A DNA stretch of 64,000 bases. Origin: Escherichia coli. Its GTDB lineage: Bacteria; Pseudomonadota; Gammaproteobacteria; Enterobacterales; Enterobacteriaceae. A program made the translations under genes and the position numbers. Shown here piece after piece: positions 39,133 through 53,105 of this stretch. The number at the start of each line of letters is the position of its first letter. Within the stretch, counting starts at the first letter, position 1. The notes under the pieces are model-generated. The model saw nothing but the letters and a program-made list of their open reading frames with translations, was not told the DNA's origin and did not search any database. The stretch lies in the NCBI RefSeq assembly GCF_965641715.1, contig NZ_OZ282453.1; one strand, written 5' to 3'.

Positions 39133-40532
39133 ACACTCGCCAGCTACTGAGCGTCGGTATCGATATCGGCACCACCACCACCCAGGTGATTTTCTCCCAC
39201 CTGGAACTGGTTAACCGTGCGGCGGTGTCGCAGGTGCCGCGCTACGAATTCATCAAACGCGAAATTAGCTGGCAAAGCCCGGTGTTCTTTACCCCTGTCG
39301 ATAAACAGGGTGGTTTAAAAGAAGCGGAACTGAAATCGCTGATTTTAGAGCAATATCAGGCTGCGGGCATTGCGCCGGAAAGCGTTGATTCTGGTGCCAT
39401 CATCATCACCGGTGAAAGCGCGAAAACCCGCAATGCTCGCCCGGCGGTGATGGCGCTCTCTCAGTCGCTGGGCGATTTTGTCGTCGCCAGCGCCGGGCCG
39501 CACCTCGAATCCGTGATCGCCGGTCACGGTGCCGGGGCGCAAACCCTTTCTGAACAACGGCTGTGTCGGGTACTGAATATCGACATCGGCGGTGGCACCG
39601 CGAACTACGCCCTGTTCGATGCCGGAAAAATCAGCGGCACTGCCTGCCTCAACGTCGGTGGTCGCCTGCTGGAAACCGACAGCCAGGGGCGCGTGGTTTA
39701 CGCTCATAAACCGGGGCAGATGATTGTGGATGAGTGCTTCGGCGCAGGCACCGATGCCCGTTCGCTGACCGGCGCGCAGCTGGTGCAGGTTACCCGGCGG
39801 ATGGCAGAGCTGATTGTCGAAGTGATTGACGGAACGCTTTCGCCGCTCGCGCAGGCATTAATGCAAACCGGTTTGCTGCCCGCAGGTGTTACGCCCGAAA
39901 TCATTACGCTTTCTGGCGGCGTGGGCGAATGTTATCGCCACCAGCCCGCCGACCCGTTCTGTTTTGCCGATATTGGCCCGCTTCTGGCAACGGCGCTGCA
40001 TGACCATCCGCGCCTGCGTGAGATGAACGTGCAGTTTCCGGCGCAAACCGTGCGCGCCACGGTGATTGGTGCGGGTGCACATACCCTTTCGCTCTCTGGC
40101 AGCACAATCTGGCTGGAGGGCGTACAACTGCCGCTGCGCAATTTGCCGGTGGCGATCCCAATTGATGAAACGGATCTGGTGGGTGCCTGGCAACAGGCGC
40201 TGATTCAGCTGGATCTTGATCCCAAAACTGACGCGTACGTGCTGGCGCTTCCCGCCTCGCTGCCTGTGCGTTACGCCGCGGTACTGACGGTCATCAACGC
40301 GTTGGTCGATTTCGTCGCGCGTTTTCCGAATCCGAATCCCCTGCTGGTGGTGGCCGGGCAGGACTTTGGTAAAGCTCTGGGCATGTTGTTGCGCCCACAG
40401 CTACAACAACTCCCGTTGGCAGTCATTGACGAAGTGATTGTCCGCGCGGGGGACTATATCGACATTGGTACGCCTCTTTTTGGCGGATCGGTTGTGCCGG
40501 TGACGGTGAAATCACTCGCATTTCCTTCCTGA
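39129..40532 (+). CDS. eutA: Ethanolamine ammonia-lyase reactivase EutA
   Basis: 467 aa; the TGA stop (40530-40532) lies inside the att core of the island. Confidence 0.94.
   Translation: MNTRQLLSVGIDIGTTTTQVIFSHLELVNRAAVSQVPRYEFIKREISWQSPVFFTPVDKQGGLKEAELKSLILEQYQAAGIAPESVDSGAIIITGESAKTRNARPAVMALSQSLGDFVVASAGPHLESVIAGHGAGAQTLSEQRLCRVLNIDIGGGTANYALFDAGKISGTACLNVGGRLLETDSQGRVVYAHKPGQMIVDECFGAGTDARSLTGAQLVQVTRRMAELIVEVIDGTLSPLAQALMQTGLLPAGVTPEIITLSGGVGECYRHQPADPFCFADIGPLLATALHDHPRLREMNVQFPAQTVRATVIGAGAHTLSLSGSTIWLEGVQLPLRNLPVAIPIDETDLVGAWQQALIQLDLDPKTDAYVLALPASLPVRYAAVLTVINALVDFVARFPNPNPLLVVAGQDFGKALGMLLRPQLQQLPLAVIDEVIVRAGDYIDIGTPLFGGSVVPVTVKSLAFPS
40511..40532. repeat. attL (bacterial arm + 8-bp core CTTCCTGA)
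   Basis: atcactcgcatttccttcctga. The core at 40525-40532 is repeated at 51725-51732, and atcact is also shared. Confidence 0.7.
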
Positions 40533-40582
40533 ATACTGTAGTTATCAGGCGTGGCGCTGGGTGGCTGGGTGTTAGTGGGATT

Positions 40583-40602
40583 ATATCCGGCTGTGTATCC
40601 GG
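40583..40602. repeat. GTATCCGG-type repeats near attL (candidate integrase arm-type sites)
   Basis: atatccgg at 40583-40590 and gtatccgg at 40595-40602. Confidence 0.4.
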
Positions 40603-40626
40603 TCGGGGTGATTGGTCTGTATAGCA

Positions 40627-40648
40627 GAAAACCCGGCGCGGGGCCGGG
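40627..40648 (-). terminator. Rho-independent terminator after the Rha-like gene
   Basis: Minus strand reads cccggc-cccgc-gccggg followed by TTTTT. The hairpin is identical to the one at 42316-42337. Confidence 0.8.
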
Positions 40649-40655
40649 TGAACTA

Positions 40656-41216
40656 TCACTCAGGGAACAAGTTGATTTGAAGCAAACTGCCAATGTATTT
40701 ACCAGTGCTTTTAATTTTTCGCTTTGATGGCTTACACGAATTCAGGTTGACACCAGCCTGGCTAGATATTGGCTTGTATTGCCGCTCCGCCAGTACGATC
40801 AGGTCTGCCGCGTCTTTTAGCTTTCCATCGTTAGCCAGTTCCAATGCTCGATCCGCCATTTGCCCGCATTGTTGAATCAGCTTAAGTTGCGATACCTCCA
40901 GTCGCAATTGCTGGATTCGTTCTACCACTTTCGCCCTAATGCGCTTAGTTTCACGCATTCCCATTCTTAATGCCTGGTTGCCAGTAAGTGAGTAAACCTC
41001 TTTTTCTTTCCTGAAGTTTGCGGCTTTACCGTCAGCTTGGACGCGCATTTTATGCGCTTCCAAGAATTCGCCCTCCAATTCATCCCTGATCTTCGCGTTG
41101 AATCTGTCGTTCTTGAGTTCATTTAACCCTTCCGCCTTGCGGATCTGGTTGATTAACTCCAACAATTCATCACTGCGGATACGCCACTCGCTATCAACCT
41201 GTACCAAGTCAAACAT
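40656..41216 (-). CDS. Rha-like phage regulatory / antirepressor-like protein (186 aa)
   Basis: ORF track 40656-41309 begins at a TTG. I prefer the ATG at 41216 (MFDLVQVDSEWRIRSDELLELINQIRKAEG), which has a GGGAG RBS 7 nt upstream. The domain pattern resembles the Phage_pRha family; this is a memory-based judgement, not a search result. Confidence 0.6.
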   Translation of the reverse strand: MFDLVQVDSEWRIRSDELLELINQIRKAEGLNELKNDRFNAKIRDELEGEFLEAHKMRVQADGKAANFRKEKEVYSLTGNQALRMGMRETKRIRAKVVERIQQLRLEVSQLKLIQQCGQMADRALELANDGKLKDAADLIVLAERQYKPISSQAGVNLNSCKPSKRKIKSTGKYIGSLLQINLFPE

Positions 41217-41380
41217 GTTGTTGCTCCCGTTTTGCTGCCATAGGGCAACGGCTCGCCAGCCTTTATCACCTCCTTTAGTTGTTGCGATTCTTAACTGAAT
41301 GGTTATCAAAACGCTGCGTTAATATCATTGATATGTATCAAATTTGTTTTGTGACGCGACAATGCCTTGTGAATATCAAT

Positions 41381-41404
41381 AAAAAACCCAGCGCTATGGC
41401 TGGG
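41381..41404 (-). terminator. Terminator after the XRE-HTH gene
   Basis: Minus strand reads cccagc-catagc-gctggg followed by TTTTTT. Confidence 0.8.
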
Positions 41405-41437
41405 CTTCGTTTAATGAGATGGGATTGAAAGCGGGTT

Positions 41438-42220
41438 TTATTTATCTCCCAGATTGTATTCCCAGTTGGGAAGTAAAGTTATCAGCTTGTCACCTTTCTT
41501 GCCTTTGCCGATCTGGTTGCCGTTCTCGTCTTTCTTGTGTGTGATTTCCTGGTCAACCTTAATCAATCCTCTCTCTTTGGCTTGCTCAATCAGTCGGTAG
41601 AATGCGCCGTTACTAATCGGCTTCCGGTTACCGTCGTTATCCATCGCAGTGATTTTCTGTTGCAGTCCGGCGTTATTGCCCAGGTATTCGCCACCTAACG
41701 CCGCCAGTACCTGACACAACATGCCGACACTGTATTTTTTCGGATTTGGGTTAATCCATTCTTTAGCTCCCATCTCTTTTTTGTCGTTGGGCGCTTGTTC
41801 TGCTGCTACTGCGTTCACCTTTTCATCTCCCATCTTGTTACCGCTTGCTGTGCGCTTAATTTCTTCCAGTTCTCTCTCAAGCTCACCTATACGTAATTCA
41901 CGCTCGATAATTACCCCGCGCAGCACATCATCATCACCGTGAGGGCTTGCCTGAATCCAGTTACCATTGGCGAGCGGTAGGAGGGCATAAATTCCGAACA
42001 GGTCACAAAGCGCGGCAAGTGTATTAAAATCAGGTTCCCGGCGTCCCTCCATCCAGTGGCTAACAGCGCCTTTTGTGACTGGTTCGCCTTTCTTGCTTTT
42101 AACACCCATGCGATCCAGTGCGGCGGCTATCTCTTCGCATTTAATGCCACGACCGCCAGCATAGCCCGCCGCTTTCGCGGCCCCTTTGAGGATGTCGTGA
42201 ATTTTCATTTCGTAACTCAT
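41438..42220 (-). CDS. XRE/cI-type HTH protein with coiled-coil linker and C-terminal putative winged-helix domain (260 aa)
   Basis: ORF 41438-42235. Start moved to MSYEMKIHDILKGAAKAAG, where the GGGAGA RBS is 8 nt upstream. The segment GIKCEEIAAALDRMGV...TKGAVSHWMEGRREPDFNTLAALCDLFG matches the HTH_XRE pattern. Confidence 0.7.
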   Translation of the reverse strand: MSYEMKIHDILKGAAKAAGYAGGRGIKCEEIAAALDRMGVKSKKGEPVTKGAVSHWMEGRREPDFNTLAALCDLFGIYALLPLANGNWIQASPHGDDDVLRGVIIERELRIGELERELEEIKRTASGNKMGDEKVNAVAAEQAPNDKKEMGAKEWINPNPKKYSVGMLCQVLAALGGEYLGNNAGLQQKITAMDNDGNRKPISNGAFYRLIEQAKERGLIKVDQEITHKKDENGNQIGKGKKGDKLITLLPNWEYNLGDK

Positions 42221-42230
42221 AATTTTATCT

Positions 42231-42258
42231 CCCATCTCATGAACTATGGTGGGAGATT
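42231..42258. promoter_or_regulatory. 28-bp box copy 1 (CCCATCTCAT-N9-TGGGAGATT), overlapping the RBS of the HTH gene
   Basis: Near-identical box at 42939-42966. ATCTCCCA (42227-42234) and TGGGAGAT (42250-42257) form a perfect 8-bp inverted repeat. Confidence 0.5.
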
Positions 42259-42315
42259 AACACGGCGGGCCTGTGGCGGGTAAGTGTAACGGGAGAGAAT
42301 GTTGATTCAGGTCAC

Positions 42316-42337
42316 AAAAACCCGGCGCGGGGCCGGG
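42316..42337 (-). terminator. Terminator after the 158-aa gene
   Basis: aaaaacccggcgcggggccggg is identical over 21 nt to the terminator at 40628-40648. Confidence 0.8.
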
Positions 42338-42359
42338 CTGTGTTAGTACGTCGTTGCTC

Positions 42360-42836
42360 TTAGTTCATGAGGAGATCTTTAAATTCGACGCCGTATTCAT
42401 GGGCAATGTCGCCTCTATAGTAGATGTTATCTTTCAGGATATATCCGACGTTTCTCAGGACGTGAGAACACTCTCTTACTGCTGCCTCTTTACCCCTTAA
42501 AACATCCTCCCCGCTAACTTCTTCGCCGCTGTACTTCACTGCGATGTTGTCTGCTGCACGCTCTGCTGCTTCCAGGCAATTAATCTTCACTTTTCCCCGA
42601 TTCTCCCAGGCAAAATCGCGGCCATAAATCCCCATTGCATCAACCATCTTTTGCGCAGTAGTGCGCTCATCCACCCATTCAGTGCGTTCGAACTTCTCGC
42701 CAGCAGCTACCCTTGCCGCCAGTTGTTCGTGTTGAGTCTGTACGGCCGCAGCCTCTTCTTCCCATTTGCCTTGCTCGTTGTATACGATGAAGCCAGTGAT
42801 GACTGCAGCGATTAGTAACTTGTCCAGAAAATTCAT
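42360..42836 (-). CDS. Membrane-anchored (N-terminal TM) protein of unknown function, 158 aa
   Basis: Strong RBS AGGAGGA 6 nt before the ATG. MNFLDKLLIAAVITGFIVY signal-anchor, then a soluble domain with two Cys. Confidence 0.7.
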   Translation of the reverse strand: MNFLDKLLIAAVITGFIVYNEQGKWEEEAAAVQTQHEQLAARVAAGEKFERTEWVDERTTAQKMVDAMGIYGRDFAWENRGKVKINCLEAAERAADNIAVKYSGEEVSGEDVLRGKEAAVRECSHVLRNVGYILKDNIYYRGDIAHEYGVEFKDLLMN

Positions 42837-42938
42837 AGCTTCCTCCTATCTGTTCAATTACCCGGCATCTCTTGCCGTTGAACGTATTAAACAAAATGCC
42901 AGTCAGGGATAAAGCGATCTGCGTCATAAAGTCCATCC

Positions 42939-42966
42939 CCCATCTCATTGATATTGATGGGAGATT
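42939..42966. promoter_or_regulatory. 28-bp box copy 2, about 100 nt upstream of the 158-aa gene
   Basis: CCCATCTCAT-tgatattga-TGGGAGATT. On the minus strand it overlaps a candidate promoter, CTGACC-N18-CAATAT. Confidence 0.45.
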
Positions 42967-43041
42967 GTTTAATTGGTCAGAAATTAAGCGTTTATGTGCG
43001 CTGCCGGGTATCCACCTCCTATCTGAAGATGGAAAGATGGG

Positions 43042-43123
43042 TGATATAATGTGATGGCAATTGGTGGATTGCGTGGTTTTTACAATGATAAGGGGCTGGC
43101 GTAATGCTGGCCCCTTTGTTTAT
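43042..43123 (+). ncRNA. Candidate ~65-nt plus-strand sRNA (promoter through terminator)
   Basis: Perfect extended -10 TGaTATAAT at 43042-43050. First hairpin gcaat-N6-attgc at 43057-43072. An 11-bp terminator stem at 43090-43116 has two G-U pairs, so it only folds well on the plus-strand RNA. It is followed by TTTGTTTAT. Confidence 0.4.
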
Positions 43124-43162
43124 CCGGTATCCGGTATCCGGTATAAGCGGGCGTGTATCCGG
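43120..43162. repeat. Internal cluster of TATCCGG/GTATCCGG repeats
   Basis: tTATCCGGTATCCGGTATCCGG (three tandem 7-mers) plus gtatccgg at 43155-43162. The segment cgtgtatccggtagcgggga resembles ctgtgtatccggtcggggtga at the left end. Confidence 0.6.
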
Positions 43163-43356
43163 TAGCGGGGATATGGGCGCGTGTACGTGAAATCTGGCAA
43201 ATTAGCAGGGTAATTGTGAGGGAATTTTTGCGTAGGAGCGTTTGTGGCTGGTAGCTCAAAATTGAGCTTTGCTTTTCATTCAATGACTTAGGTTAATTCT
43301 AGCAAAACGCTAGGATTGAATGTCCGCCAGTCTGCTTCCCCTAGCGTGGGATTTGG

Positions 43357-45723
43357 TCAACGTCTGCGCGGCTGCAAAATTCCTCCGGGTCGTTGTGATT
43401 CACGCTGCATCAGTCGCATCGCTGTGTTTTCTATGGTCTGCTGCAGCGCTTTTGAGTCTTCCTCTGTCCAGCCGTTGTTAGCCTGGATGTTGAACGTATT
43501 GTTCATCGTGATTCCGCCACCGCCTACCAGATCGCGGCCCGGTGTAACTCGTCCACCTTCACCCGGGATCATGTACTGTTTCCCGCCAGTGGATGTAAAT
43601 AGCTCCGGTACTCCGTGCTCCCCGACCCTATAAAGATTGCCACCGTTAACAGCCCCGCCGTTGTAACGAGCGCCAGCCAGTCCAAGCGTTTTGGCGGCAG
43701 CTACGCCAGTAGTAAGCCCGGTAAGTCCAGTGGCCCCAGCGCCGCCCATCGTGGCTACGTTAGCCAGGTATGCAGGAGTGGCCCACGCCGATCCTAATGC
43801 TGTAGCCTCTGCTAGTGCTTTAGCTGTTGCGGCTGCGTTTGCGGCTTCACCAATTAGCTGCTGTTTAACCCACTCAGCACCCATCTGGACAATGCCACCG
43901 ACCACAGAAGACAGGATCGTACTGCCAACGTTGGCAAGTGACTCTTGCAGCGATTGAGTACCGTTTATCAGTCCGGTAAATGCGCTGCCAGCGCCAGACG
44001 ATAACCCATCGACCATATTCCCGATGAGGCCATTTATATCGCTTTGTTTCTTCCACTGCTGCCACTGGAGATCCAGAACCCTTTGTTCATGTGCGATCTC
44101 TTCCTGGCGCAACTGCTCTTCGGTAGCCCCAAGATCTAGAAGCATTTGCTTGCGAACAGCCCATTCATTTTGGATCTTCTGTATTGGGTCAATCTGAGCT
44201 TTCTGCTTATCCTGCTCACTGACAAGACTGTCCCATTTCGCTTTCTGCTTGCGGATGGCTTCAGCTTCATCAATTGCTGCGAGTGTACTTGCTCGCTGTT
44301 TCGCGCTGATCAACCGTTTCTGCTCAGCCGCTTCCAGGTCTTCTACTGCTTTTTTCCGTTTATTGAGCGCCGCTAGTTCGGGATCGTATTTTTCCACCAA
44401 TGAAAGGCCGCTTGCTTCCTTACGTTCGCGTTCTCTTTGTGCCTGTTTGGCTGCCTGCTTAGCGGCGTTTTCTGCTTGTTTGGCTGCTCTTTCTTTCGCC
44501 CTGGTGTTCTCTTCTTCCTTGCGCTTATTCTCTTCTAACTCCTTGTTTTGTTCGCGTAATTTAACGATTTCCTCATGATGCGCCTTTGTCAGCTGGCCTT
44601 CTTTCAGTGCCCGATCTATATCAGCGTTTGCGTTGCCTTTTAGCTGTTCCTGTTTAACTTGCAGATGTTTAATCATCATTTCGCCAGTGGCAATCGCTGC
44701 CGCAGACGCTCCAGCATTCAGAGCTTCATTTAACGCTCTCTGACGTTCTTCTGCTGTTAATGCCTCGTTGCTGTATCGAAGTAGCGCATCAACGTATTTC
44801 TCCAGTTCTGCGCGGCCTGCCGCAGTTGCTGGTTCCATTGCTTTTAGGATGCTCAGAAGGCTTTGCGCTTCATAGGAAGACGGGTTTTTGCGGAACTGCG
44901 CCATAGCGTTATAAAGCGCCATAGCTTCACCCTCTGTGATTCTGTACTTAGCTCCCAGCCCTTCAATGACCGCTGATAACTGTTTGCCAAGCGCTGCACC
45001 GAATGCGCCTTCCTTGCTTAATTTGTTGAGCACTTCACTCAGTGAATTTCCTGACACGCCCAGCGCGTCGAGTTCTCTTGCTACCGTTCCCAGGTCGCCG
45101 CCTTTCATCCATCCTGCATTAGAAAATTCAGTGATAGCCCGGCCCGCTTCCCGCGTTTCTTCCTGGAGTGTTTTTAGCGCCCGCACGGCCTGCTCTTTCA
45201 TTACGGCGGCGGCAATGGCGTTGTTCTGTGTGGCTTCGTAATATGAATCACTGAAAGCGTTAACGCCCTGGGTGGATTTGCCGATCACGGCGTCGATTGA
45301 TGCTAATGCCTCCTTCATCCTTTCAGCGCTATCCGTTGCGTCGTCCATGCTGTCCGTTAGGCTGTTGGCAATCGCCCCGCCAATAGCCATCACCGCCCCC
45401 ATGACCGCACCGCCAGTACCGAAGGCAGCGGCAAGTTGTGCACCCTGCACAGCGAACGCCTGGAGCGCATTACCGCCCATCTGCAATTGAGTGGCAAGGT
45501 CTGCGATCTGGTATGATGCGTTACGGATTGCCGGGGAAAGGTTGGTTTTGACTGCGGCAGACGTTTTGGTCATCTGCGTGTTCAGTTTTTTGACGCCACT
45601 GTCAGCGCGTTTTGCGCCGCGTTCTATACTGTCAAAAGCCTGGTCCGCTTCTTGTTGTGCTGCCAGGAGTTTACCAGTACGGGCGTCGACCTCATAGTAT
45701 ATGGTCCCAAGATTCCCACTCAT
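43357..45723 (-). CDS. Phage tail tape-measure protein, lambda gpH-like, 788 aa, apparently full length
   Basis: The N-terminal YQIADLATQLQMGG segment, the long E/K/A/Q coiled-coil core, and the Gly-rich hydrophobic C-terminal region ending GG..YRVGEHGVPELF ... NNTFNIQANNG match my memory of gpH domain order. Confidence 0.8.
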   Translation of the reverse strand: MSGNLGTIYYEVDARTGKLLAAQQEADQAFDSIERGAKRADSGVKKLNTQMTKTSAAVKTNLSPAIRNASYQIADLATQLQMGGNALQAFAVQGAQLAAAFGTGGAVMGAVMAIGGAIANSLTDSMDDATDSAERMKEALASIDAVIGKSTQGVNAFSDSYYEATQNNAIAAAVMKEQAVRALKTLQEETREAGRAITEFSNAGWMKGGDLGTVARELDALGVSGNSLSEVLNKLSKEGAFGAALGKQLSAVIEGLGAKYRITEGEAMALYNAMAQFRKNPSSYEAQSLLSILKAMEPATAAGRAELEKYVDALLRYSNEALTAEERQRALNEALNAGASAAAIATGEMMIKHLQVKQEQLKGNANADIDRALKEGQLTKAHHEEIVKLREQNKELEENKRKEEENTRAKERAAKQAENAAKQAAKQAQRERERKEASGLSLVEKYDPELAALNKRKKAVEDLEAAEQKRLISAKQRASTLAAIDEAEAIRKQKAKWDSLVSEQDKQKAQIDPIQKIQNEWAVRKQMLLDLGATEEQLRQEEIAHEQRVLDLQWQQWKKQSDINGLIGNMVDGLSSGAGSAFTGLINGTQSLQESLANVGSTILSSVVGGIVQMGAEWVKQQLIGEAANAAATAKALAEATALGSAWATPAYLANVATMGGAGATGLTGLTTGVAAAKTLGLAGARYNGGAVNGGNLYRVGEHGVPELFTSTGGKQYMIPGEGGRVTPGRDLVGGGGITMNNTFNIQANNGWTEEDSKALQQTIENTAMRLMQRESQRPGGILQPRRR

Positions 45724-46012
45724 AATATCTTTATCCGCGTTGTGCGGACACCTCCGATTATTCTTTACTCTAATAATTTCACAATGAAACAGTTTATTGC
45801 CGCTTCAGTGGCTTCGTGTTCCGGTTTGCTTCGATCAATCACAAAAAATACAGCTTAATAGAATCAATGGCTTATAAAGTTGTATTAGCTATGTTTCTTC
45901 GTCCGTGCCACTGAAAACCCAGTTTTTCCAATGGAATCAATACTGATATGTATCCATACTGTTTTTCACATAATGTACGTTATGCGCACTACGGGAAACG
46001 TACTGAATTTAT

Positions 46013-46243
46013 TTACTGGTCGCCGTTCAGTTCATGCAGAGTCTGTTCTGGCAATGAATCCAGCCAGTTTTCTGCATCCTCCCTGTAACACTCCAGGATG
46101 CAACGGTTTGTGAAGTTGATGAAAGCGGTCAGTGATTCTGCTTCGTCGTTCCTGTGCGTTCTCCTGGCGTGCTTGCGTAGTCGTTTCGCGTCTGCCAGTT
46201 GGTCATTGAGTATCTTCAGTCTGTCGGCAATATCATCGTTCAT
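46013..46243 (-). CDS. Hypothetical 76-aa helical protein
   Basis: GGGAGAG RBS 5 nt upstream of the ATG; protein-like charged helical composition; no family recognised. Confidence 0.55.
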   Translation of the reverse strand: MNDDIADRLKILNDQLADAKRLRKHARRTHRNDEAESLTAFINFTNRCILECYREDAENWLDSLPEQTLHELNGDQ

Positions 46244-46378
46244 GTCGTCTCTCCCTCGCGCGCGCGTCGTACTTGTCCGAAAATTACCCCCATAAAAGCG
46301 CCCCTCATATAGTGCAAAATCCCGGCTGACGCGGATCTCAGTGGGTTTTAGCAGTGAAAACTGACATCAAAAACGGCT

Positions 46379-46426
46379 CGCTAAGGTCCGCTAAGTATCC
46401 GCTATCGTTCGCTAACCCCCCGCTAA
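46379..46426. repeat. Five phased CGCTAA (minus strand TTAGCG) direct repeats
   Basis: Copies start at 46379, 46389, 46400 (CGCTAT), 46410 and 46421. The spacings of 10, 11, 10 and 11 bp equal one helical turn. Confidence 0.85.
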
Positions 46427-46430
46427 CCTA

Positions 46431-46796
46431 TTAGATATCGCATCCAACGCTATTGAGCTGGCTATGTATATCGGCGCGAATTAACTTCAGGCGTTTACAA
46501 AATTCGCGTTCTTCCGAATTAAGCTCGCGGCCACCTTGTTTCGAGGCAATGAGCTTGTTGATGGTGGAAAGCGAATATTCACTCCATATACGAAGCATTT
46601 GTCGCTTCATTGGTTGCTCGCTCAATGGTGAGTTTTTCAGGTCTGACACGCGCTCTGCGACGGTTCTTGCGATGCCTTGTACCACTCGTAGTGCCAACAT
46701 GATGATTTTCTCCGGACTTGTGCTAATATAGTTCCCGAACATTGTTTCGAGACTGCTTATCCTGTTTGTCTTGTCCGATTTGTTCATTGGTCGCAT
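46431..46796 (-). CDS. Hypothetical 121-aa protein
   Basis: ORF with protein-like composition (…IIMLALRVVQGIARTVAERVSDL…) but no obvious SD. A hairpin lies just upstream, and the stop abuts the CGCTAA array. Confidence 0.5.
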   Translation of the reverse strand: MRPMNKSDKTNRISSLETMFGNYISTSPEKIIMLALRVVQGIARTVAERVSDLKNSPLSEQPMKRQMLRIWSEYSLSTINKLIASKQGGRELNSEEREFCKRLKLIRADIHSQLNSVGCDI

Positions 46797-46838
46797 TGTT
46801 AAGTCAGCCGGGGTAATTCCCGGCTTTCTTTTATCCGA

Positions 46839-47381
46839 TCAGTACCGAATCCCTATCGCATTGAATACGCGTTTCCGTTGCTCAGCTTCAGGATCGGCGG
46901 CCATTTCTGGTTCTGGCTCCGGCATAGACGGGGCGGCATCAAAATGCTCAATTTCACGACCGAAATACGAGTTCAGGTCAATACCTGCCGAACTATCCAC
47001 TCCATCAAAATAGCGACGCTGTTCCTCGGTGAGACAGCTACCCAGACGTTCCTCAACCTGCGCCATAAACTCAGCATCCGGTGAGAAGTACTCATCCGGA
47101 GTCGGAGCACCGCTCTGTTTGTGCATCTCCATTTTCTCTGCGTTCGTTTTCAGCCCGGCAATGCGTTTCTCCAGTCCGGCGGCTTTAATAGCGTCAGCAA
47201 CGATTTGTGGGATCTGCGGTTTAATTATTTCGATAACTTCATTGCTGATTAATTTAAACTGGGCCATACGGATCGCTTTAATCTGCTTATTTAACAGTGC
47301 GCGTTCCCCTTCGTTGGCGGTTTTATCACGCTGTGCTACCAGTTCATCGCCTTTGTTTGTCAGTACATCAAATGCGTCCAT
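46839..47381 (-). CDS. Hypothetical 180-aa protein with acidic, Pro-rich C-terminal part
   Basis: Strong RBS GGAGGAGG; starts 17 nt after the stop of the 108-aa ORF. Confidence 0.65.
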   Translation of the reverse strand: MDAFDVLTNKGDELVAQRDKTANEGERALLNKQIKAIRMAQFKLISNEVIEIIKPQIPQIVADAIKAAGLEKRIAGLKTNAEKMEMHKQSGAPTPDEYFSPDAEFMAQVEERLGSCLTEEQRRYFDGVDSSAGIDLNSYFGREIEHFDAAPSMPEPEPEMAADPEAEQRKRVFNAIGIRY

Positions 47382-47398
47382 TGTCTTTCCTCCTCCGA

Positions 47399-47725
47399 TT
47401 ATTTAAAAGTGCTTATTGACACGCCGAAACGACGACTTAATTCAAAAAGGAGTCGCGCCTTTGCAGTGCCTTCCATGTCTTCCGGCATTTCAGACTGAAG
47501 TTTATCAGCTACTTCATCAACAAGTGGCCGAACCGTTTCCACGAACTTGTCCGCAATATAATCAGCAGAACGCATCACTTTTTCCTGGAATTCCTCACGG
47601 CGTACCTGGGCGGCTGATTTAGGGGCTGTCGTGCGCTGAAAATAACTGTCTAATGAATGCATGGCATCTGCTCCTTTTACTTTGATTGCTGTTATTTCTT
47701 TAATTGTGTTTGCTTTGATTTTCAT
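47399..47725 (-). CDS. Hypothetical 108-aa protein
   Basis: AAGGA RBS; first gene downstream of alpA in the same orientation. Confidence 0.55.
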   Translation of the reverse strand: MKIKANTIKEITAIKVKGADAMHSLDSYFQRTTAPKSAAQVRREEFQEKVMRSADYIADKFVETVRPLVDEVADKLQSEMPEDMEGTAKARLLFELSRRFGVSISTFK

Positions 47726-47801
47726 GCTGCCTATTCCTTCAGAAATTGCGGTAGTTTGCTTTTTAAATCAATAAGTTATTTGATAATCTCAGTAGCTGTT
47801 T

Positions 47802-47993
47802 TCATTGGTGGCGAGCGCCTTTGTTTTTATAGAATTCCAAAATCTCAGATCGGATAAACTTAATTCTTGAGCCAATCGGACTGACCGGGACGGGCCAGCC
47901 TTTAATCTTGTTCATCCACCGGAATATTGTCCGACGGGTAACGCCGAATAAAGCTGCTACCTCGTTAACCGTCATTAATTCGCTATCATTCAT
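47802..47993 (-). CDS. AlpA-family (Phage_AlpA/HTH_17) transcriptional regulator / excisionase-like protein, 63 aa
   Basis: LMTVNEVAALFGVTRRTIFRWMNKIKGWPVPVSPIGSRIKFIRSEILEF is the typical AlpA/MerR-like HTH. GAGGTGAG RBS. Confidence 0.85.
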   Translation of the reverse strand: MNDSELMTVNEVAALFGVTRRTIFRWMNKIKGWPVPVSPIGSRIKFIRSEILEFYKNKGARHQ

Positions 47994-47996
47994 GTT

Positions 47997-48046
47997 CTCA
48001 CCTCAAAAAGTAGCGGTGAGGAAAATATGGAGAAAACCCTCACCGC
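47997..48046 (-). promoter_or_regulatory. Terminator-like leader hairpin immediately upstream of alpA; one arm duplicates the SD
   Basis: mRNA sense: GCGGTGAGG-N16-CCTCACCGC (9-bp perfect stem), then UACUUUUU, then GAGGUGAG (SD), then AAC-AUG. The 3' arm can also pair with the SD (CUCACC/GGUGAG). Confidence 0.55.
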
Positions 48047-48090
48047 GCCCTGAATGAAATTAAAGACCAACATTACTGTTGATACTTATT

Positions 48091-48096
48091 ATTATA
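48091..48096 (-). promoter_or_regulatory. Candidate -10 (perfect TATAAT) for the alpA operon
   Basis: Minus strand reads ggaaTATAATaa, about 95 nt upstream of the alpA ATG. The -35 is weak (ATGTGA). Confidence 0.3.
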
Positions 48097-48185
48097 TTCC
48101 TCCTGTCCCTGTTTCACATCTTTTACCATATAGTGAAAGGGGATATTCTGTAATGTTTACAAAACTTTTAATTAGCAAAAAATAA

Positions 48186-48306
48186 TTGCGCATCTCACGT
48201 AATGCAGGGATAATATTACTCAAGGGCTGGTTGCCCTTACTCAAAATGTGATCTATAACTACAACGATCTATTTCACTTCCCCGCTTTCTCCGGCGGGAT
48301 TTTTTT
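48186..48306 (+). ncRNA. Candidate ~85-nt plus-strand sRNA (promoter through terminator)
   Basis: TTGCGC-N17-GATAAT at 48186-48214. 5' hairpin aagggc-tggtt-gccctt at 48222-48238. 3' hairpin cccgc-N8-gcggg followed by a run of seven T at 48300-48306. Confidence 0.3.
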
Positions 48307-49118
48307 GCCTGCAATCTGGCACCATTGCGCACATTAAAATTAGATGCCATTTAAAAGCGATATAACGCGTTCTGCCGGGCTTAATTTTGGCTATCCACTT
48401 GGAAGGGTAAGCCTGTTTTGATTCGTCTGGCGTGGAATGGTGCGGCGGTAATATCAGATCTCAGCGTTCTGCGTGGTGGGATGAAATAGCCTGGCAGGAT
48501 TTGCGTGTGGTTTGCTCTCCCAAAAAATGGGGTAATGGCGCTGGCTGGATGGCAGGACTCCGCGCTGATTACTGGATGGCTGAAAATTTAATGAAATCGC
48601 ATCAATTTTAATGCGTCTAAATCGCTCTGTGGCGACGTGAAGTTTTCAGGTAAGCAAGTGTAGCTGTGTGGTGTGTTCATCGCGTTACTGGCACCATTCC
48701 GTTCGAATTTGGCGCTATCAGGATGGTTTGCGGTGGTCGGCGGCGGGGATAAACTTGCTTGAGTGGTCACCTCAGCCTGCTGTGCGTCGTGTGATGGTAC
48801 TGTCTGCACCTGGCTATACGCTGCTTTGCTGCTGTTTCCTGTCTGGTCTGTATACGCGATAAAACCCATCGGCTTTACAGTGAGTGAGTTTTTTGCGCTT
48901 TGCTTTCCATTCGGTTTGCTTACTGCTGCTGTGTGTCTGTGCGGTAGCTCAGAAAGCTGTCGATGATAACCATCACTGCCAGACCGTCTTTTGAGCTGGC
49001 GATTGCTCGAAGTCTTCCGAAGGTCCGCTGGGCTTGTTGCTTGTTTGTGTTCTTTTAAAATGCGCGCCTCTTACTTTCTCTTAAAAAGAAAAAAGGAATA
49101 TACAGATCTCATACTATG

Positions 49119-49273
49119 TGTGTCCCAAATGTCACACGTCATGGCCTGACCTGTATCCCAAATGTCACACGTCACCCTCTGACCTGTATCCCAAATGTCA
49201 CACGTACCTGTGTCCCAAATGTCACACGTCTATTGTTAATTAATTGTTGACCTGTGTCTCAAATGTCACACGT
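49119..49273. repeat. Five direct 21-bp iterons TGTRTCCCAAATGTCACACGT (putative ori)
   Basis: Copies at 49119-49139, 49152-49172, 49185-49205, 49209-49229 and 49253-49273 (one mismatch). Start spacings are 33, 33, 24 and 44 bp. Four copies are preceded by (G)ACCTG. An AT-rich tract with AGATCT lies at 49081-49110. Confidence 0.85.
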
Positions 49274-49290
49274 CTGTTGATGGTTTAAGT

Positions 49291-49320
49291 AATAAAAAGG
49301 GCCACCATTTTAGGTGACCC
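49291..49320 (-). terminator. Terminator after the Rep-like gene
   Basis: Minus strand reads gggtcacc-taaaat-ggtggccc followed by TTTTTATT. Confidence 0.7.
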
Positions 49321-49338
49321 ATTGATGCGTTTTAGTCG

Positions 49339-50103
49339 TTATCTTGCGTTCTCGACCTGAAAAAGCATTCTGTATTTTCTTGCGTGCTGACCAATAACAT
49401 ATTCCCCGTATGGCTCAATGAGTCCTAACTCAACCAGGATTTTCATCTGGCGAATTACGGTGCGGCGATTCATGCCCCATTCATCAGCTATTTTTGCCTG
49501 GCAAACTTCAGATACATAAGATCCATCATTCTGCTTTCTTGCTGCTGATGCAATGCTGGATAATACGCTCCAGGCTGTAGCTTTAGCTTTATTCTCGCAA
49601 CCACTTCTGACAAATGCCTTACGTGCCGCACCCAAACAGACATAACTGCAATAAATTCCTTTTTCTTCCGTTTGGTATTGTGTCTCTTTATCCTGCATGG
49701 CTTCCGGTTCTTCCGGCGCTTCCTGCTGTGGTGCTGTCTGCGAAGTTTTAGCGGCCATACTGCGTAGCTCGTTCACGATATCAGTAGCTGATTTCTTCTC
49801 GCTTTTAGTTTCCTGCGTGACTGATAAATACTCACCTTGTAACGCCAGGAAGTCAGCGCGGGCGTTTGCCTGGCTTTGTTCTGGTGATTCAGGTTCTGCA
49901 TCGGCAGGTGATGAAATCGGTGATACACGCGCCCAGCCTGTTTTGGCGTTGCATTCCCAGCGATAACCATTAAAGCGGATATCATTCAGGCCATCATCAA
50001 TGGCGCTCCGTACTTCTTCCGGGATCGCGTCGATTTTCTGAAGGCTGTGTTTACCGAGTGATTCGCCTTGCCGTGGGGCGTAGGCGGTTGGTAAAATATT
50101 CAT
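49339..50103 (-). CDS. Putative iteron-binding replication initiator / winged-helix DNA-binding protein, 254 aa
   Basis: AAGGAGAA RBS. The C-terminal segment IADEWGMNRRTVIRQMKILVELGLIEP is a wHTH-like motif. A long acidic Q/E/P-rich linker is present. The gene is directly followed by a terminator and the iteron array. No primase or helicase motifs. Confidence 0.55.
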   Translation of the reverse strand: MNILPTAYAPRQGESLGKHSLQKIDAIPEEVRSAIDDGLNDIRFNGYRWECNAKTGWARVSPISSPADAEPESPEQSQANARADFLALQGEYLSVTQETKSEKKSATDIVNELRSMAAKTSQTAPQQEAPEEPEAMQDKETQYQTEEKGIYCSYVCLGAARKAFVRSGCENKAKATAWSVLSSIASAARKQNDGSYVSEVCQAKIADEWGMNRRTVIRQMKILVELGLIEPYGEYVIGQHARKYRMLFQVENAR

Positions 50104-50173
50104 GTGGGATTTCTCCTTTTTACTTGTTTCCCATATCGCCCGGATTGGTTAGCGGCCTTCCGGGCTTTTTGTT
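50068..50173 (+). ncRNA. Candidate countertranscript (antisense) RNA to the rep leader, ~70 nt, with its promoter
   Basis: TTGCCG-N18-TGgTAAAAT (extended -10) at 50068-50097 places the TSS near 50104, abutting the rep ATG. The transcript is complementary to the rep SD (ttctcctt at 50111-50118). It ends at hairpin gcccgga-N14-tccgggc followed by TTTTTGTT (50138-50173). Confidence 0.5.
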
Positions 50174-50317
50174 GCGTTGATCCTATTTTCGATCCCCGGA
50201 TTTTTTATTACAAACTTGGCTTAATCATTGATTTTATTGGTATAGCTGTATAAAAGGATAACAGGATAAAAGGGTGATAGATTGTGTAACCTGTTAACCT
50301 TTTATACCAGTAAGGCG

Positions 50318-50341
50318 AAAGAAAAGCCGGACGAATCCGGC
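50318..50341 (-). terminator. Terminator after the integrase gene
   Basis: Minus strand reads gccgga-ttcg-tccggc followed by TTTTCTTTC. Confidence 0.75.
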
Positions 50342-50349
50342 CTTATAGT

Positions 50350-51555
50350 TCACGGCTCCAGCGGATTACCGCCACCAGCCAATATCTGGTCGATGGCGTC
50401 GCTGTAGTCCTGCATCATGGCCCGCCGTTGCTTCAGATAGGCCGCCTGGTTATAAACGCCGCGCACACCTTTCGGAACGTGGGCCAGTTGGATTTCGATC
50501 CAGTCTGGTGAGTATCTGCCGTACTCGTTAAGTGCGGTTGAAAAGGTGGTTCGCCAGCCGTGACCAGTGGCTATCGACTTGTATCCGATACGCTCCAGGG
50601 CTTTAAGGATGGCACTGGCTGAAAGTGGCTTATCCATGAATCGACCAGGGAACACAAAAGCACTGTATCCGCTGCGGGTAAACTGGTCCTGTAATAGCTC
50701 GACCGCCTGCCGGGATAGCGGGACCACATGCGGGCGGCGGGCCTTCATGACTTCAGCGGGTAGGGTGATGGTTGCCGATTCCAGATCTACCCACTCCCAG
50801 CGCATTAAACGCAGTTCTGCGGTCCTTAGGGCGCTTAATATAAGCAAACGTATTGCCGTCTGAATCTGAACGCTCCCGGCTCTCTCAAGGGCTTTGTAGA
50901 AGGCCGGGATTTCGTTAATTTGTATCCATGCGTTATGGCCTGGGCGTCGGGCTTTCAATGCCGTGTCCAGATCTGCAACCGGATTTCGGTTAACCAGTTC
51001 AGTGATAACGGCAAATTTGAAGATTTCCCCTATACGCTGCCGTAATTTTCGGGCCTGTTCCGGCGCGGTGCGCTCTTTCTTCTGAAGCAATGCCAGCACG
51101 TCACGGGCCGTTATATCGACAATCGACCGCTTGCCAAGTACCGGATAAACATCTTTCTCCAGTGCCGATCTAACTTGTTTCGTGTAAGACTCAGACCAAC
51201 CGCTCACTCTGGTAGCAAACCAGTCTTCCGCTACCGTCTTAAAACTTGCCGCCATGTTGAGCGCATCAATGGCTTTCTCCTTGCGCGCTTCTTCCATTGG
51301 GTCAATTCCCTGGGCGATGAGTAAACGGCTCTCTGTGGCGCGTTTACGTGCTTCCTTCAAGGTAATCAGCGGATATACCCCAATAGCCTGTAACCGCTCT
51401 TTCTTGTCTATCCAGTACCGGAATCGCCAGTATTTGCTGCCATTGGGATGTACCAGCAAGAACAGGCCAGGTGTCTGTGAATCGGTGAGTTTGTAGGGCT
51501 TGTCCTTCGGCTGGGCGGCCTCTATGCCCTTTGCTGTCAGTGGTGTCTTGCTCAA
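50350..51555 (-). CDS. P4-family tyrosine integrase (N-terminal arm-binding DUF4102-type domain), 401 aa; occupies the position of K-12 intZ
   Basis: TTG start with a GAGGT RBS. KPYKLTDSQTPGLFLLVHPNGSKYWRFRY is the typical P4-integrase N-terminus. C-terminal catalytic residues are present: ...HGWRTTFST...LAHV...GVYNQAAY. Confidence 0.9.
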   Translation of the reverse strand: MSKTPLTAKGIEAAQPKDKPYKLTDSQTPGLFLLVHPNGSKYWRFRYWIDKKERLQAIGVYPLITLKEARKRATESRLLIAQGIDPMEEARKEKAIDALNMAASFKTVAEDWFATRVSGWSESYTKQVRSALEKDVYPVLGKRSIVDITARDVLALLQKKERTAPEQARKLRQRIGEIFKFAVITELVNRNPVADLDTALKARRPGHNAWIQINEIPAFYKALERAGSVQIQTAIRLLILSALRTAELRLMRWEWVDLESATITLPAEVMKARRPHVVPLSRQAVELLQDQFTRSGYSAFVFPGRFMDKPLSASAILKALERIGYKSIATGHGWRTTFSTALNEYGRYSPDWIEIQLAHVPKGVRGVYNQAAYLKQRRAMMQDYSDAIDQILAGGGNPLEP

Positions 51556-51557
51556 AA

Positions 51558-51604
51558 CCGGATACCTCGATCTAACGACTCGATAACCCCGCTCATGTAT
51601 CCGT
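51558..51604. repeat. GTATCCGG-type motifs near attR (candidate arm-type sites)
   Basis: ccggatac (inverted) at 51558-51565, overlapping the int RBS, and gtatccgt at 51597-51604. Confidence 0.35.
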
Positions 51605-51717
51605 CGCGTTCGGTTGCGTTCGGCAGGATAAGTAACGGGCGTATTAAGTGGAACACCTTACAGGACAAGGGATAACGATGAAATAGAATTGTTCGAATGC
51701 TGTGAAAAATGTTACTC

Positions 51718-51732
51718 ATCACTTCTTCCTGA
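51718..51732. repeat. attR (element-borne imperfect copy of the eutA 3' end)
   Basis: atcacttcttcctga, followed directly by gggaacgacttATG of eutB, the expected uninterrupted eutA-eutB junction. Confidence 0.7.
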
Positions 51733-51743
51733 GGGAACGACTT

Positions 51744-53105
51744 ATGAAACTAAAGACCACATTGTTCGGCAATGTATATCAGTTTAAGGATGTAAAAGAG
51801 GTGCTGGCTAAAGCCAACGAACTGCGTTCGGGGGATGTGCTGGCGGGCGTCGCAGCGGCAAGCTCACAGGAGCGCGTGGCGGCAAAGCAGGTGTTGTCGG
51901 AAATGACCGTAGCGGACATCCGCAATAATCCGGTGATTGCCTATGAAGATGACTGCGTGACGCGGCTGATTCAGGACGATGTTAACGAAACGGCCTACAA
52001 CCAGATTAAAAACTGGAGCATCAGCGAACTGCGTGAGTATGTGCTGAGCGATGAAACCAGCGTGGACGACATTGCCTTTACCCGCAAAGGGCTGACCTCG
52101 GAAGTGGTCGCGGCGGTAGCGAAGATTTGCTCCAACGCGGACCTGATCTACGGCGCGAAGAAAATGCCGGTAATCAAAAAGGCCAATACCACCATCGGTA
52201 TTCCGGGCACCTTTAGCGCCCGTTTGCAGCCAAATGACACCCGTGACGACGTGCAAAGTATCGCCGCGCAAATCTACGAAGGGCTTTCCTTCGGGGTGGG
52301 CGATGCGGTGATCGGCGTCAACCCGGTAACTGACGATGTGGAAAACTTAAGCCGCGTGCTGGATACCATTTATGGCGTGATCGACAAATTCAACATCCCA
52401 ACTCAGGGCTGCGTACTGGCGCACGTCACCACCCAGATCGAAGCGATTCGTCGCGGCGCGCCTGGCGGACTGATTTTCCAGAGTATCTGTGGCAGCGAAA
52501 AAGGGCTGAAAGAGTTTGGCGTGGAACTGGCGATGCTCGACGAAGCGCGCGCAGTGGGCGCAGAGTTCAACCGTATCGCCGGGGAAAACTGCCTCTACTT
52601 CGAAACCGGACAAGGCTCTGCGCTATCCGCTGGCGCTAACTTCGGCGCTGACCAGGTGACGATGGAAGCACGTAACTATGGGCTGGCGCGTCATTACGAT
52701 CCGTTTATCGTCAACACCGTGGTCGGTTTTATTGGGCCGGAGTATCTCTACAACGACCGCCAGATTATCCGTGCTGGCTTAGAAGATCACTTTATGGGCA
52801 AGCTGAGCGGCATCTCTATGGGCTGTGACTGCTGTTACACCAACCACGCTGACGCTGACCAGAACCTCAACGAAAACCTGATGATCCTGCTCGCCACCGC
52901 AGGCTGCAACTACATCATGGGGATGCCGTTGGGCGATGACATCATGCTCAACTACCAGACCACCGCCTTCCACGACACTGCCACTGTGCGTCAGTTACTC
53001 AACCTGCGCCCGTCACCGGAGTTTGAACGCTGGCTGGAAAGCATGGGCATTATGGCAAACGGTCGCCTGACCAAACGGGCGGGCGATCCGTCACTGTTCT
53101 TCTGA
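51744..53105 (+). CDS. eutB: Ethanolamine ammonia-lyase large subunit
   Basis: ORF track starts at 51702, inside the island. The true start is MKLKTTLFGNVYQFKDVKEVLAKANE at 51744, 453 aa. Confidence 0.95.
   Translation: MKLKTTLFGNVYQFKDVKEVLAKANELRSGDVLAGVAAASSQERVAAKQVLSEMTVADIRNNPVIAYEDDCVTRLIQDDVNETAYNQIKNWSISELREYVLSDETSVDDIAFTRKGLTSEVVAAVAKICSNADLIYGAKKMPVIKKANTTIGIPGTFSARLQPNDTRDDVQSIAAQIYEGLSFGVGDAVIGVNPVTDDVENLSRVLDTIYGVIDKFNIPTQGCVLAHVTTQIEAIRRGAPGGLIFQSICGSEKGLKEFGVELAMLDEARAVGAEFNRIAGENCLYFETGQGSALSAGANFGADQVTMEARNYGLARHYDPFIVNTVVGFIGPEYLYNDRQIIRAGLEDHFMGKLSGISMGCDCCYTNHADADQNLNENLMILLATAGCNYIMGMPLGDDIMLNYQTTAFHDTATVRQLLNLRPSPEFERWLESMGIMANGRLTKRAGDPSLFF

Follow-up and report, generated by a model that had tools for sequence, protein, structure and literature searches.

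The 64,000-nucleotide stretch of Escherichia coli DNA analysed here (contig NZ_OZ282453.1, hereafter the window) carries an 11,200-bp island, at positions 40533-51732 between eutA and eutB, that is a member of the CPZ-55 family by its insertion site, core duplication and IntZ integrase. On balance, we lean towards reading this island as an integrated, mosaic member of a family of so-far unrecognised E. coli phage satellites. A satellite, and not a phage remnant, is suggested by the size of ~11 kb, a replicon of its own, packaging-specificity genes in relatives, a selected tape-measure protein (TMP) gene, and the lack of any other virion or lysis gene. The satellite-type reading is considerably strengthened at the level of the family, partly supported overall, and unproven for the window copy.

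The eutA gene ends at 40532 and eutB starts at 51744, with an MKLKTT start within the open reading frame (ORF) listed from 51702. The sequence obtained by joining positions 40333-40532 to 51733-51932 (400 nt) is found uninterrupted in 4965 of 5426 complete E. coli genomes (91.5%), with up to 99.8% identity. The island is thus a clean insertion, in agreement with a preliminary description of this DNA that proposed an 11.2-kb insertion splitting eut. The 8-bp core CTTCCTGA, which forms the end of eutA, is present twice, at 40525-40532 and 51725-51732. Such an 8-bp duplication at eut was already published for CPZ-55, and the published occupancy of the eut site agrees with the ~8% of E. coli genomes observed here (PMC6379469). 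The G+C content of the island is mostly 42-50%, with 54-58% within int and parts of the TMP gene, and that of the flanks is 55-62%. No tRNA gene is present in the window. The contig of another integrated island, L027, stops exactly 30 nt (k-1) outside each att core, which, from the behaviour of de Bruijn graphs, indicates that occupied and empty sites co-existed in that sample.

The island comprises 11 ORFs, all on the minus strand and antisense to eut (Table 1); the preliminary description was right about their orientation and counted one too few. They are arranged in the order int, Rep-like gene with iterons, HTH_17 gene, four small ORFs, TMP gene and three variable 3' genes. The integrase is 92-96% identical to IntZ of K-12 and of sister islands. 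No window ORF matched a capsid, portal, terminase, tail-tube, baseplate or lysis family in Pfam, PHROG and NCBIfam scans, as had been predicted from the sequence. The four small ORFs of 108, 180, 121 and 76 aa matched no family at all. The small regulator initially called alpA does match HTH_17 and excisionase models, and homologues 54-58% identical to this 63-aa protein are retained in the integrase-less circles described below; the name itself did not hold, with no match to Pfam Phage_AlpA (PF05930) at E<=0.01.

The island resembles CPZ-55 of K-12 in its insertion point, the 8-bp core duplication, the integrase (92% identity to IntZ), the presence of YffS-like (70%), YffR-like (34%) and YffM-like (45% over the C-terminal part) genes, and a Rep-like gene followed by iterons. 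It differs by its size (11.2 kb, compared with 6.8 kb for CPZ-55) and by its Rep allele and iterons, YffL having only a 27% local match in the window. It also harbors an intact TMP gene, the AlpA-like gene and ORFs of 108, 180 and 76 aa, none of which K-12 has, whereas YffN, YffO (the small terminase), YffP and YffQ are absent from the window. The suggestion that this is a fuller relative of CPZ-55 is thus borne out by the integrase and by the TMP gene. The family is modular and so is not defined by the genes that its members carry. At most 63% of the island is covered by any one complete E. coli genome, so that it is not identical to a known annotated remnant. Its segments have different closest relatives: 40333-41416 matches strain E47 (98.5%), 41264-43675 matches AP023286 and ATCC 8739 (99%), and 45577-51493 matches USMARC-49610 (98.5%). 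For the middle of the TMP gene, complete genomes offer no close match, and a near-identical allele is found in draft-genome eut islands with a YffL-type Rep.

About 20 eut islands were retrieved for comparison. They share the order int, Rep-like gene with repeats, ~1-kb spacer, HTH_17 gene, small genes including a YffM-family member, TMP gene and variable genes. Across these loci the backbone is conserved, and the differences lie in the cargo and in the Rep and TMP alleles. The variable slots are filled by an AIPR abortive-infection gene, by an acyltransferase, by gad-like genes accompanied by IS1, or by helix-turn-helix (HTH) and Ant-like genes, and in L008 the TMP gene itself is replaced by cargo. 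The GD33, O157:H7 and K-12 backbone lineage additionally carries an HNH endonuclease and a protein matching Pfam Sf6_terminase (PF20901), with E=4.8e-13 for the GD33 protein and E=2.6e-9 for K-12 YffO, both above the curated cutoff. In the window lineage, the 76-aa ORF occupies the site of this HNH/small-terminase module. Relatives of the island genes were not found inside a complete prophage at any of the loci examined, in line with the expectation that they are not pieces of ordinary prophages. K-12 YffO (L004 6112-6528), listed as uncharacterised, is by Pfam an Sf6-type small terminase. A literature search brought up no publication that connects CPZ-55 or yffO with satellites.

The 254-aa Rep-like protein comprises a conserved N-terminal part, a disordered acidic linker and a C-terminal winged helix (HTH_36, 23.9 bits in Pfam, under the 25-bit cutoff), and shows weak PHROG matches to replication initiators. 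An AlphaFold2 model has a mean predicted local distance difference test score of 60, and its sole confident part is the winged helix (residues 152-250). The iterons lie directly 3' of the gene, after a terminator at 49299-49320, and are followed in gene orientation by an AT-rich stretch. The same iterons recur in L007, among the islands with an HTH254-type Rep. Islands of the YffL type harbor three or four 23-nt GGTGGGTCAAAAGTTGCCG iterons (four for K-12 YffL), and further Rep alleles are each associated with different 22-23-nt repeats, always directly 3' of the gene. Repeats of 22-23 nt, with a spacing of 22-56 nt and an allele-specific sequence, are typical of iteron origins. Alignment of 21 family Rep proteins revealed that the N-terminal part is conserved and that the C-terminal winged helix attached to it comes in three interchangeable types, which is the pattern expected of a specificity-determining binding domain. 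The Rep-like gene and its iterons behave as a cognate, swappable cassette. In L077, the Rep gene is followed by a terminator, a perfect DnaA box TTATCCACA, at least five iterons and AT-rich DNA, and in L018 DnaA boxes are localized within 56-nt repeats. No close relative of the Rep-like protein or of the 180-aa ORF was observed in IMG/VR.

We performed a search for TMP homologues, which returned hundreds of E. coli alleles; in 28 of the 120 clusters listed, the longest contig is 10.2-13.2 kb. Three of these relatives have terminal overlaps: 30 nt in L017 (Logan, k=31), giving a circle of 11,188 bp; 119 nt in L022 (MEGAHIT k119, flag 3, 82x coverage), giving 10,887 bp; and 141 nt in L023 (MEGAHIT k141), giving 11,073 bp. 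The overlaps equal k-1 or k of three different assemblies, and we thus take the contigs to be circular assemblies. Three E. coli isolate assemblies provide further examples, namely L077, which closes via its iterons, and the ~11-kb integrase-less contigs L018, which ends within iterons, and L079. The gene order of the circles is HTH_17, HNH, small genes, small terminase, a YffP-like gene, sometimes a weak HK97-gp10-like gene, TMP, small genes, Rep and iterons. Their TMPs are 726-788 aa long, and the 180- and 121-aa ORFs of the window have homologues in three of their small genes, of 80, 142 and 100 aa. The Rep position is occupied by an HTH_36 protein, by another type, or, in L017, by a DUF5906 protein, which we take to be of the helicase type; in L022 and L077 the HTH_36-type protein is the only replication candidate. 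Neither an integrase nor the att arms of the island are present in the circular relatives, and these also have no capsid, portal, large terminase, tail-tube or lysis gene. Their small terminase is weakly similar to that of mEp021, and relatives of the family small terminase in IMG/VR (L029-L068, ~38% identical) are found on phage contigs of 4-57 kb, many of 30-35 kb. The integrated islands thus correspond to this circle, cut open between the variable region and Rep and with int and attP placed before Rep.

Two closed E. coli plasmids in PLSDB, pRHB34-C15_2 and pRHB29-C22_2 (9.0 and 9.7 kb), carry the family backbone and no TMP gene. On these plasmids (L020, CP057168.1, and L021, CP057337.1), which come from UK farm isolates and are classed as 'non-mobilizable', a serine recombinase is found in the TMP position. 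Their backbone includes HTH, YffO-like and YffP-like genes, and the same slot holds an HNH endonuclease in L020 or an unannotated 195-aa gene in L021.

The TMP of the window is full-length, as first described. It matches phrog_1538 (E=8e-112) over residues 1-774 of 788, and the solved virion TMP in PDB 9occ_M (E=1e-41) over residues 72-746. Comparison of the window gene with circle and island alleles 73-92% identical to it gives a ratio of nonsynonymous to synonymous substitution rates (dN/dS) of 0.10-0.13 at dS 0.7-1.3, which indicates that the TMP is under purifying selection. TMP lengths fall into tight classes of 787-788, 725-727 and 728-732 aa. The ends of the gene and the flanking non-coding DNA are conserved across lineages and the middle is variable; alleles that are 33-100% identical stand beside a near-invariant backbone. 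In phage mEp021, a major-tail gene lies ~1.4 kb upstream of the TMP gene and minor-tail genes ~2 kb downstream, with short reverse-strand ORFs between them. In none of ~25 relatives of the island is the TMP gene flanked by tail-tube, chaperone or tail-tip genes. A TMP search of IMG/VR returned one distant match only.

These features may be combined in a mechanism in which the ~11-kb family core would replicate from its own iteron origin. The small winged-helix initiator would bind the iterons and would have to recruit a helicase and a primase from the host or from a helper. The HTH_17 (AlpA/excisionase-like) protein heads one long operon ending with the full-length TMP gene, and the fuller relatives additionally encode a small terminase of the Sf6 type and an HNH endonuclease, in some cases with an HK97-gp10-like protein. 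A siphovirus helper would provide the capsid, large terminase, tail tube and tail tip, such that the element could replicate, direct its own packaging and place its own TMP in chimeric tails, as do the PLEs of Vibrio, elements that resemble phage-inducible chromosomal islands. The eut members have IntZ and attP as a module ahead of the Rep gene and hence reside at the eutA stop codon. Helper dependence, packaging and incorporation of the TMP into tails are inferred. The window copy retains int, the Rep-iteron cassette, the regulator and a TMP gene that is intact and under selection. Having neither terminase nor HNH gene, it would need a packaging site recognised by the helper, or it may instead be a partly grounded derivative that still swaps modules with active relatives. 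More tentatively, CPZ-55 could be the eroded integrated form of an undescribed satellite family whose members exist as ~11-kb iteron plasmids or inserted via IntZ/attP at the eutA stop, and which parasitise siphophages by packaging via their own small terminase and HNH endonuclease and by swapping the helper TMP in chimeric tails. The extreme variety of TMP alleles, with length kept fixed, would in that case result from the matching of different helpers, or from escape from TMP-targeting defences and exclusion systems.

Several observations weigh against a satellite. No helper phage was identified by comparison of phage TMPs or of the non-coding blocks with phages: the nearest true-phage TMPs, from the mEp013/515/021 group of E. 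coli siphophages, are 52-60% identical over 40-54% of the length, the 270-nt block upstream of the TMP gene has no match in phages or plasmids that would reveal a helper site, and neither does the 1.3-kb alpA-Rep spacer among 50,697 phage records in sensitive mode. Searches of IMG/VR, metagenomes and phage records did not return an attP junction or a packaged form of the element; for the predicted junction TCATCRMTTCTTCCTGAATRCKGTAKT, the absence of a match in IMG/VR or metagenome contigs is a weak negative, as it required an exact pattern and the right samples. A closed TMP-bearing plasmid was found neither in PLSDB nor among the 5426 complete E. coli genomes, and the self-overlapping contigs could instead derive from concatemers or circularly permuted DNA. 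Within the window copy, no small terminase or HNH gene was detected by family scans and hhalign, no DnaA box lies near the iterons, and two spacer ORFs are broken: that at 48104-48367, which is intact in L002 (89 aa), has an in-frame stop, and that at 48591-49021, of 164 aa in L024, is frameshifted near 48995, leaving a 93-aa ORF (48588-48869). In K-12, mobilome sequencing gave no signal for CPZ-55, and its excision occurs at a low frequency, below 1e-5 (PMC3105296). That it excises at all counts in favour of a satellite, and with the breaks of contig L027 at both att sites it is an indirect hint of helper-induced mobility. The notion of a satellite-type replicon advanced in the preliminary description is partly supported, by the cognate Rep-iteron pair, the circular relatives and the terminase and HNH genes of relatives, the latter two genes not being found in the window.

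The island might alternatively be a plain prophage stump of the cryptic kind, left when an mEp021-like or HK97-like siphophage decayed down to one end; int, a regulator and, by chance, the TMP gene would have been kept, with no present function or mobility. CPZ-55 indeed goes by the name of cryptic prophage in annotation and in the literature, the TMP and small terminase derive from phages, and rare or undetected excision in K-12 is what a stump would give, as are the broken spacer ORFs and missing terminase of the window copy and the loss of the TMP gene from K-12 or its exchange for cargo in L008. A TMP gene that, unlike that of mEp021, stands outside tail genes in ~25 relatives, with a fixed length and dN/dS of ~0.1 at saturating dS, does not fit chance retention. 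Cognate Rep-iteron cassettes and integrase-less circles are ill-suited to a decaying 50-kb phage, and the integrated and circular forms keep an identical gene order; we consider a stump quite improbable. Slightly easier to entertain, but still unlikely, is a plasmid-derived defence or cargo island, spread by recombination or generalised transduction, whose TMP would act as an anti-phage interference factor (dominant-negative or decoy) that poisons siphophage tail assembly or DNA entry. This would account for the cargo (the AIPR gene of L002, the acyltransferase of L025, the Ant-like and gad-like genes) and for the absence of packaging genes from the window lineage, and an arms race could have left the extreme TMP diversity against a near-invariant backbone; tail assembly and the TMP are known targets of defences such as Tai (PMC11364771) and Rta. 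However, fixed length classes and purifying selection along the whole protein better fit a working ruler than a decoy, the TMP co-occurs with small terminase, HNH and gp10-like genes in relatives, and PADLOC found no defence system on the island, just a generic HTH match.

The replicative role of the HTH_36 protein and its repeats can also be questioned. They could form a transcriptional or partition regulator with its operators, or a packaging-site recognition pair in the manner of a small terminase on repeats. Foldseek assigns the model a generic winged helix, with a best PDB match of E=7e-3, a result that speaks neither for nor against an initiator; its top neighbours are the CodY, ArsR/SmtB and MarR repressors and the partition protein TubR, and the RepA_N entries 4pt7 and 4pql come at ranks 33-37. 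The sub-threshold Pfam score and the lack of a DnaA box near the window iterons point the same way. The integrase-less circles nevertheless make a non-replicative role unlikely: in L022 and L077 the protein is the only candidate for replication, with repeats beside a perfect DnaA box and an AT-rich stretch, and in L017 a DUF5906 protein fills the same slot. Together with the PHROG matches to replication initiators and the length and allele specificity of the repeats, this leads us to give such a role little credence.

Several known systems come close to the island. The Vibrio PLEs are likewise small integrated elements with their own TMP gene although their helper has one. Their iteron origin is served by a RepA_N initiator that has no helicase activity, and the island would resemble them in its mode of action, with an initiator and iterons, no helicase and a TMP of its own. 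No sequence relationship to the PLEs was found, and whereas these rely on a serine recombinase, have the myovirus ICP1 as helper and encode both a tail chaperone and a baseplate hub, the island has a tyrosine recombinase, a siphovirus-type TMP and no detected chaperone. The PLE TMP enters satellite virions and gives chimeric tails, a 2026 precedent from Vibrio for satellite TMPs, and some phage-inducible chromosomal islands that form capsids (cf-PICIs) carry putative tmp genes (PMC12987554, Extended Data Fig. 10).

Gram-negative PICIs (e.g. EcCICFT073) and cf-PICIs share with the island a size of ~11 kb, a terminal int that reads in the same direction as an AlpA-type regulator and a replication module, an accessory region at the 3' end that varies and, in the relatives of the island, a small terminase. 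In contrast to them, the island has no primase-helicase (pri-rep), its Rep-like protein being just an HTH_36 winged helix; its AlpA-like gene is 2.3 kb from int, with the Rep-origin cassette in between; it has neither a packaging module (small terminase, Rpp, capsid remodelling or redirection) nor capsid genes; and it has a TMP gene, and integrase-less circular forms in its family. P4 is also ~11 kb. It occurs either integrated or as a plasmid and relies on helper structural genes. General Pfam, PHROG and NCBIfam scans, which did not specifically seek a P2-type cos site, found no homologue of the P4 alpha primase-helicase, sid, psu, delta or epsilon in the island, the TMP of which is of the siphovirus type. 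By the defining genes of these elements the island is thus not a PICI or P4-like: there is no primase or helicase, as noted initially, the AlpA-like gene is not adjacent to int, and this copy has no packaging module. The EPIPs of Mycolicibacterium, described in a preprint, are 11-kb satellites with a small terminase and a TMP and no tail tube or lysis genes (PMC12822802); the likeness is by description, and EPIPs differ in being actinobacterial, in having a serine integrase and capsid and connector proteins, and in being known as free particles.

Table 1. Features of the eut island and its boundaries, in window coordinates.
Feature	Position	Strand	Evidence or remark
attL core CTTCCTGA	40525..40532	.	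Contains eutA stop codon; empty site reconstructed
Conserved left arm	40533..40655	-	93-97% identical in all sister islands
Variable 3' gene, 217 aa	40656..41309	-	Resembles C-terminal part of Ant/anti-repressor; PHROG anti-repressor families, E ~1e-5
XRE-type HTH protein, YffS-like, 265 aa	41438..42235	-	Weak HTH_3/HTH_31; 70% identical to K-12 YffS
YffR-like protein, 158 aa	42360..42836	-	34% identical to K-12 YffR; no family match
Non-coding block after TMP gene	42837..43356	-	12-bp-stem hairpin 43090-43116; GTATCCGG repeats 43127-43182
Tail tape-measure protein (TMP), 788 aa	43357..45723	-	phrog_1538, PDB 9occ_M
~270-nt non-coding block upstream of TMP gene	45724..46012	-	Conserved across family lineages; 14 family loci aligned
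76-aa ORF	46013..46243	-	Present solely in integrated eut islands
YffM-family protein, 121 aa	46431..46796	-	Core gene common to all lineages; alignment A1
180-aa ORFan	46839..47381	-	Homologous to two adjacent ORFs (80 + 142 aa) of circular relatives
108-aa ORF	47399..47725	-	97-99% identical in sister islands L001, L002, L007, L008; no family match in Pfam/PHROG/NCBIfam
HTH_17/excisionase-like ('AlpA-like') protein, 63 aa	47802..47993	-	First gene of long operon; PF12728 E=7e-9; phrog_66 E=2e-9
Spacer between origin and alpA	47994..49118	-	Two broken ORFs, plus-strand terminator-like hairpin, conserved blocks
Five 22-nt iterons TGTRTCCCAAATGTCACACGTC, putative origin	49119..49285	-	Repeat scan
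Rep-like protein, 254 aa (HTH_36)	49339..50103	-	Pfam, PHROG, alignment, predicted structure
IntZ-type tyrosine integrase, 401 aa	50350..51555	-	Arm-DNA-bind_3, Phage_int_M and Phage_integrase domains
Right arm and attR core CTTCCTGA (51725-51732)	51556..51732	.	

Among the small genes, the 180-aa ORF has 28 matches, and all except two of them reach at least 93% identity. Homologues of this ORF and of the Rep-like protein are nearly all from E. coli/Shigella, with single Salmonella and unclassified Enterobacteriaceae records. The 180- and 108-aa ORFs were considered as cryptic small terminases and rejected (hhalign probability 0.1%). The 121-aa protein is 40-54% identical to YffM-family proteins of GD33, O157, K-12 and the circles, and a scan of species-representative genomes confined this family to E. 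coli/Shigella, apart from one 246-nt Chromohalobacter contig match. Where the islands have the 76-aa ORF, the circular relatives harbor the genes for the small terminase and the YffP-like protein. Cargo is accepted in the slot that separates the 76-aa ORF from the conserved block lying upstream of the TMP gene: an AIPR abortive-infection gene and a 232-aa gene in L002 (7638-10145), and an acyltransferase with an IS1 fragment in L025 (1740-3356). At the 3' end of the island, the YffR-like protein has an N-terminal hydrophobic helix, as read from its sequence, the YffS-like protein has relatives 26-28% identical on plasmids L020 and L021, and the 217-aa gene is found at 99% identity only in L009 and L069, other islands holding different genes at that position.

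The non-coding DNA of the island also harbors conserved signals. Upstream of the TMP gene, the order is GGAGG, a hairpin TCCGC-ACAAC-GCGGA and the ATG. The GGAGG lies ~28 nt before the ATG with the 5-bp hairpin in between (45724-45765, minus strand), and most family members keep this arrangement; the hairpin could bring the Shine-Dalgarno sequence beside the ATG as a 'split' ribosome-binding site, or could gate translation. Downstream of the gene, a 65-nt stretch (43176-43240) is conserved in circular relatives. The left arm contains GTATCCGG-type repeats at 40582-40612 and a terminator at 40631-40649; clusters of these repeats thus adjoin both attL and the end of the TMP gene (43127-43182). 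In L007, which has none of the three 3' genes, the attL arm directly meets the region downstream of the TMP gene. The 2.6-kb block of 3' genes may sit between duplicated arm-type sites. The 21-nt sequence AAAACCCGGCGCGGGGCCGGG occurs in two identical copies (40628-40648 and 42317-42337) and in a third that is 71% identical (41383-41403). The two identical copies are terminator hairpins at the ends of the cassettes with the 217-aa and 158-aa genes, and the AAAACCCGGCGCGGGGCCGGG copies may mark points at which variable cassettes are exchanged by recombination.

In the spacer, the blocks at 48240-48503 and 48583-48872 are 74-90% conserved with the integrase-less circles. A plus-strand terminator-like hairpin with a T-run (48281-48298) is localized upstream of the AlpA-like gene, opposite to all island genes, and could end an antisense or regulatory transcript. 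Rfam returned nothing on the island at E<=1. A consensus scan gave 9 promoter-like sites versus 13.2 expected from shuffled sequence, and 22 terminator-like sites versus 15.2 +/- 4.6. As there is no excess over shuffled sequence, the density of terminators is not evidence in itself, and the earlier argument that it speaks against decay does not stand.

Should the satellite reading be correct, the list of nine textbook 'cryptic prophages' of E. coli K-12 would be one shorter, CPZ-55 becoming a satellite remnant, and E. coli would acquire a family of satellites that falls outside the P4, PICI and cf-PICI schemes. Detectors of the SatelliteFinder type would probably miss this family because it has no pri-rep gene. 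The 8-11-kb 'non-mobilizable' plasmids of E. coli would be linked to phage-mediated transfer, and the family would offer a tractable E. coli system for satellite-encoded TMPs and chimeric tails, shown so far only for the Vibrio PLEs. Finally, as the eut operon is interrupted in ~8% of E. coli genomes, the excision dynamics of the island bear on the use of ethanolamine in the gut.

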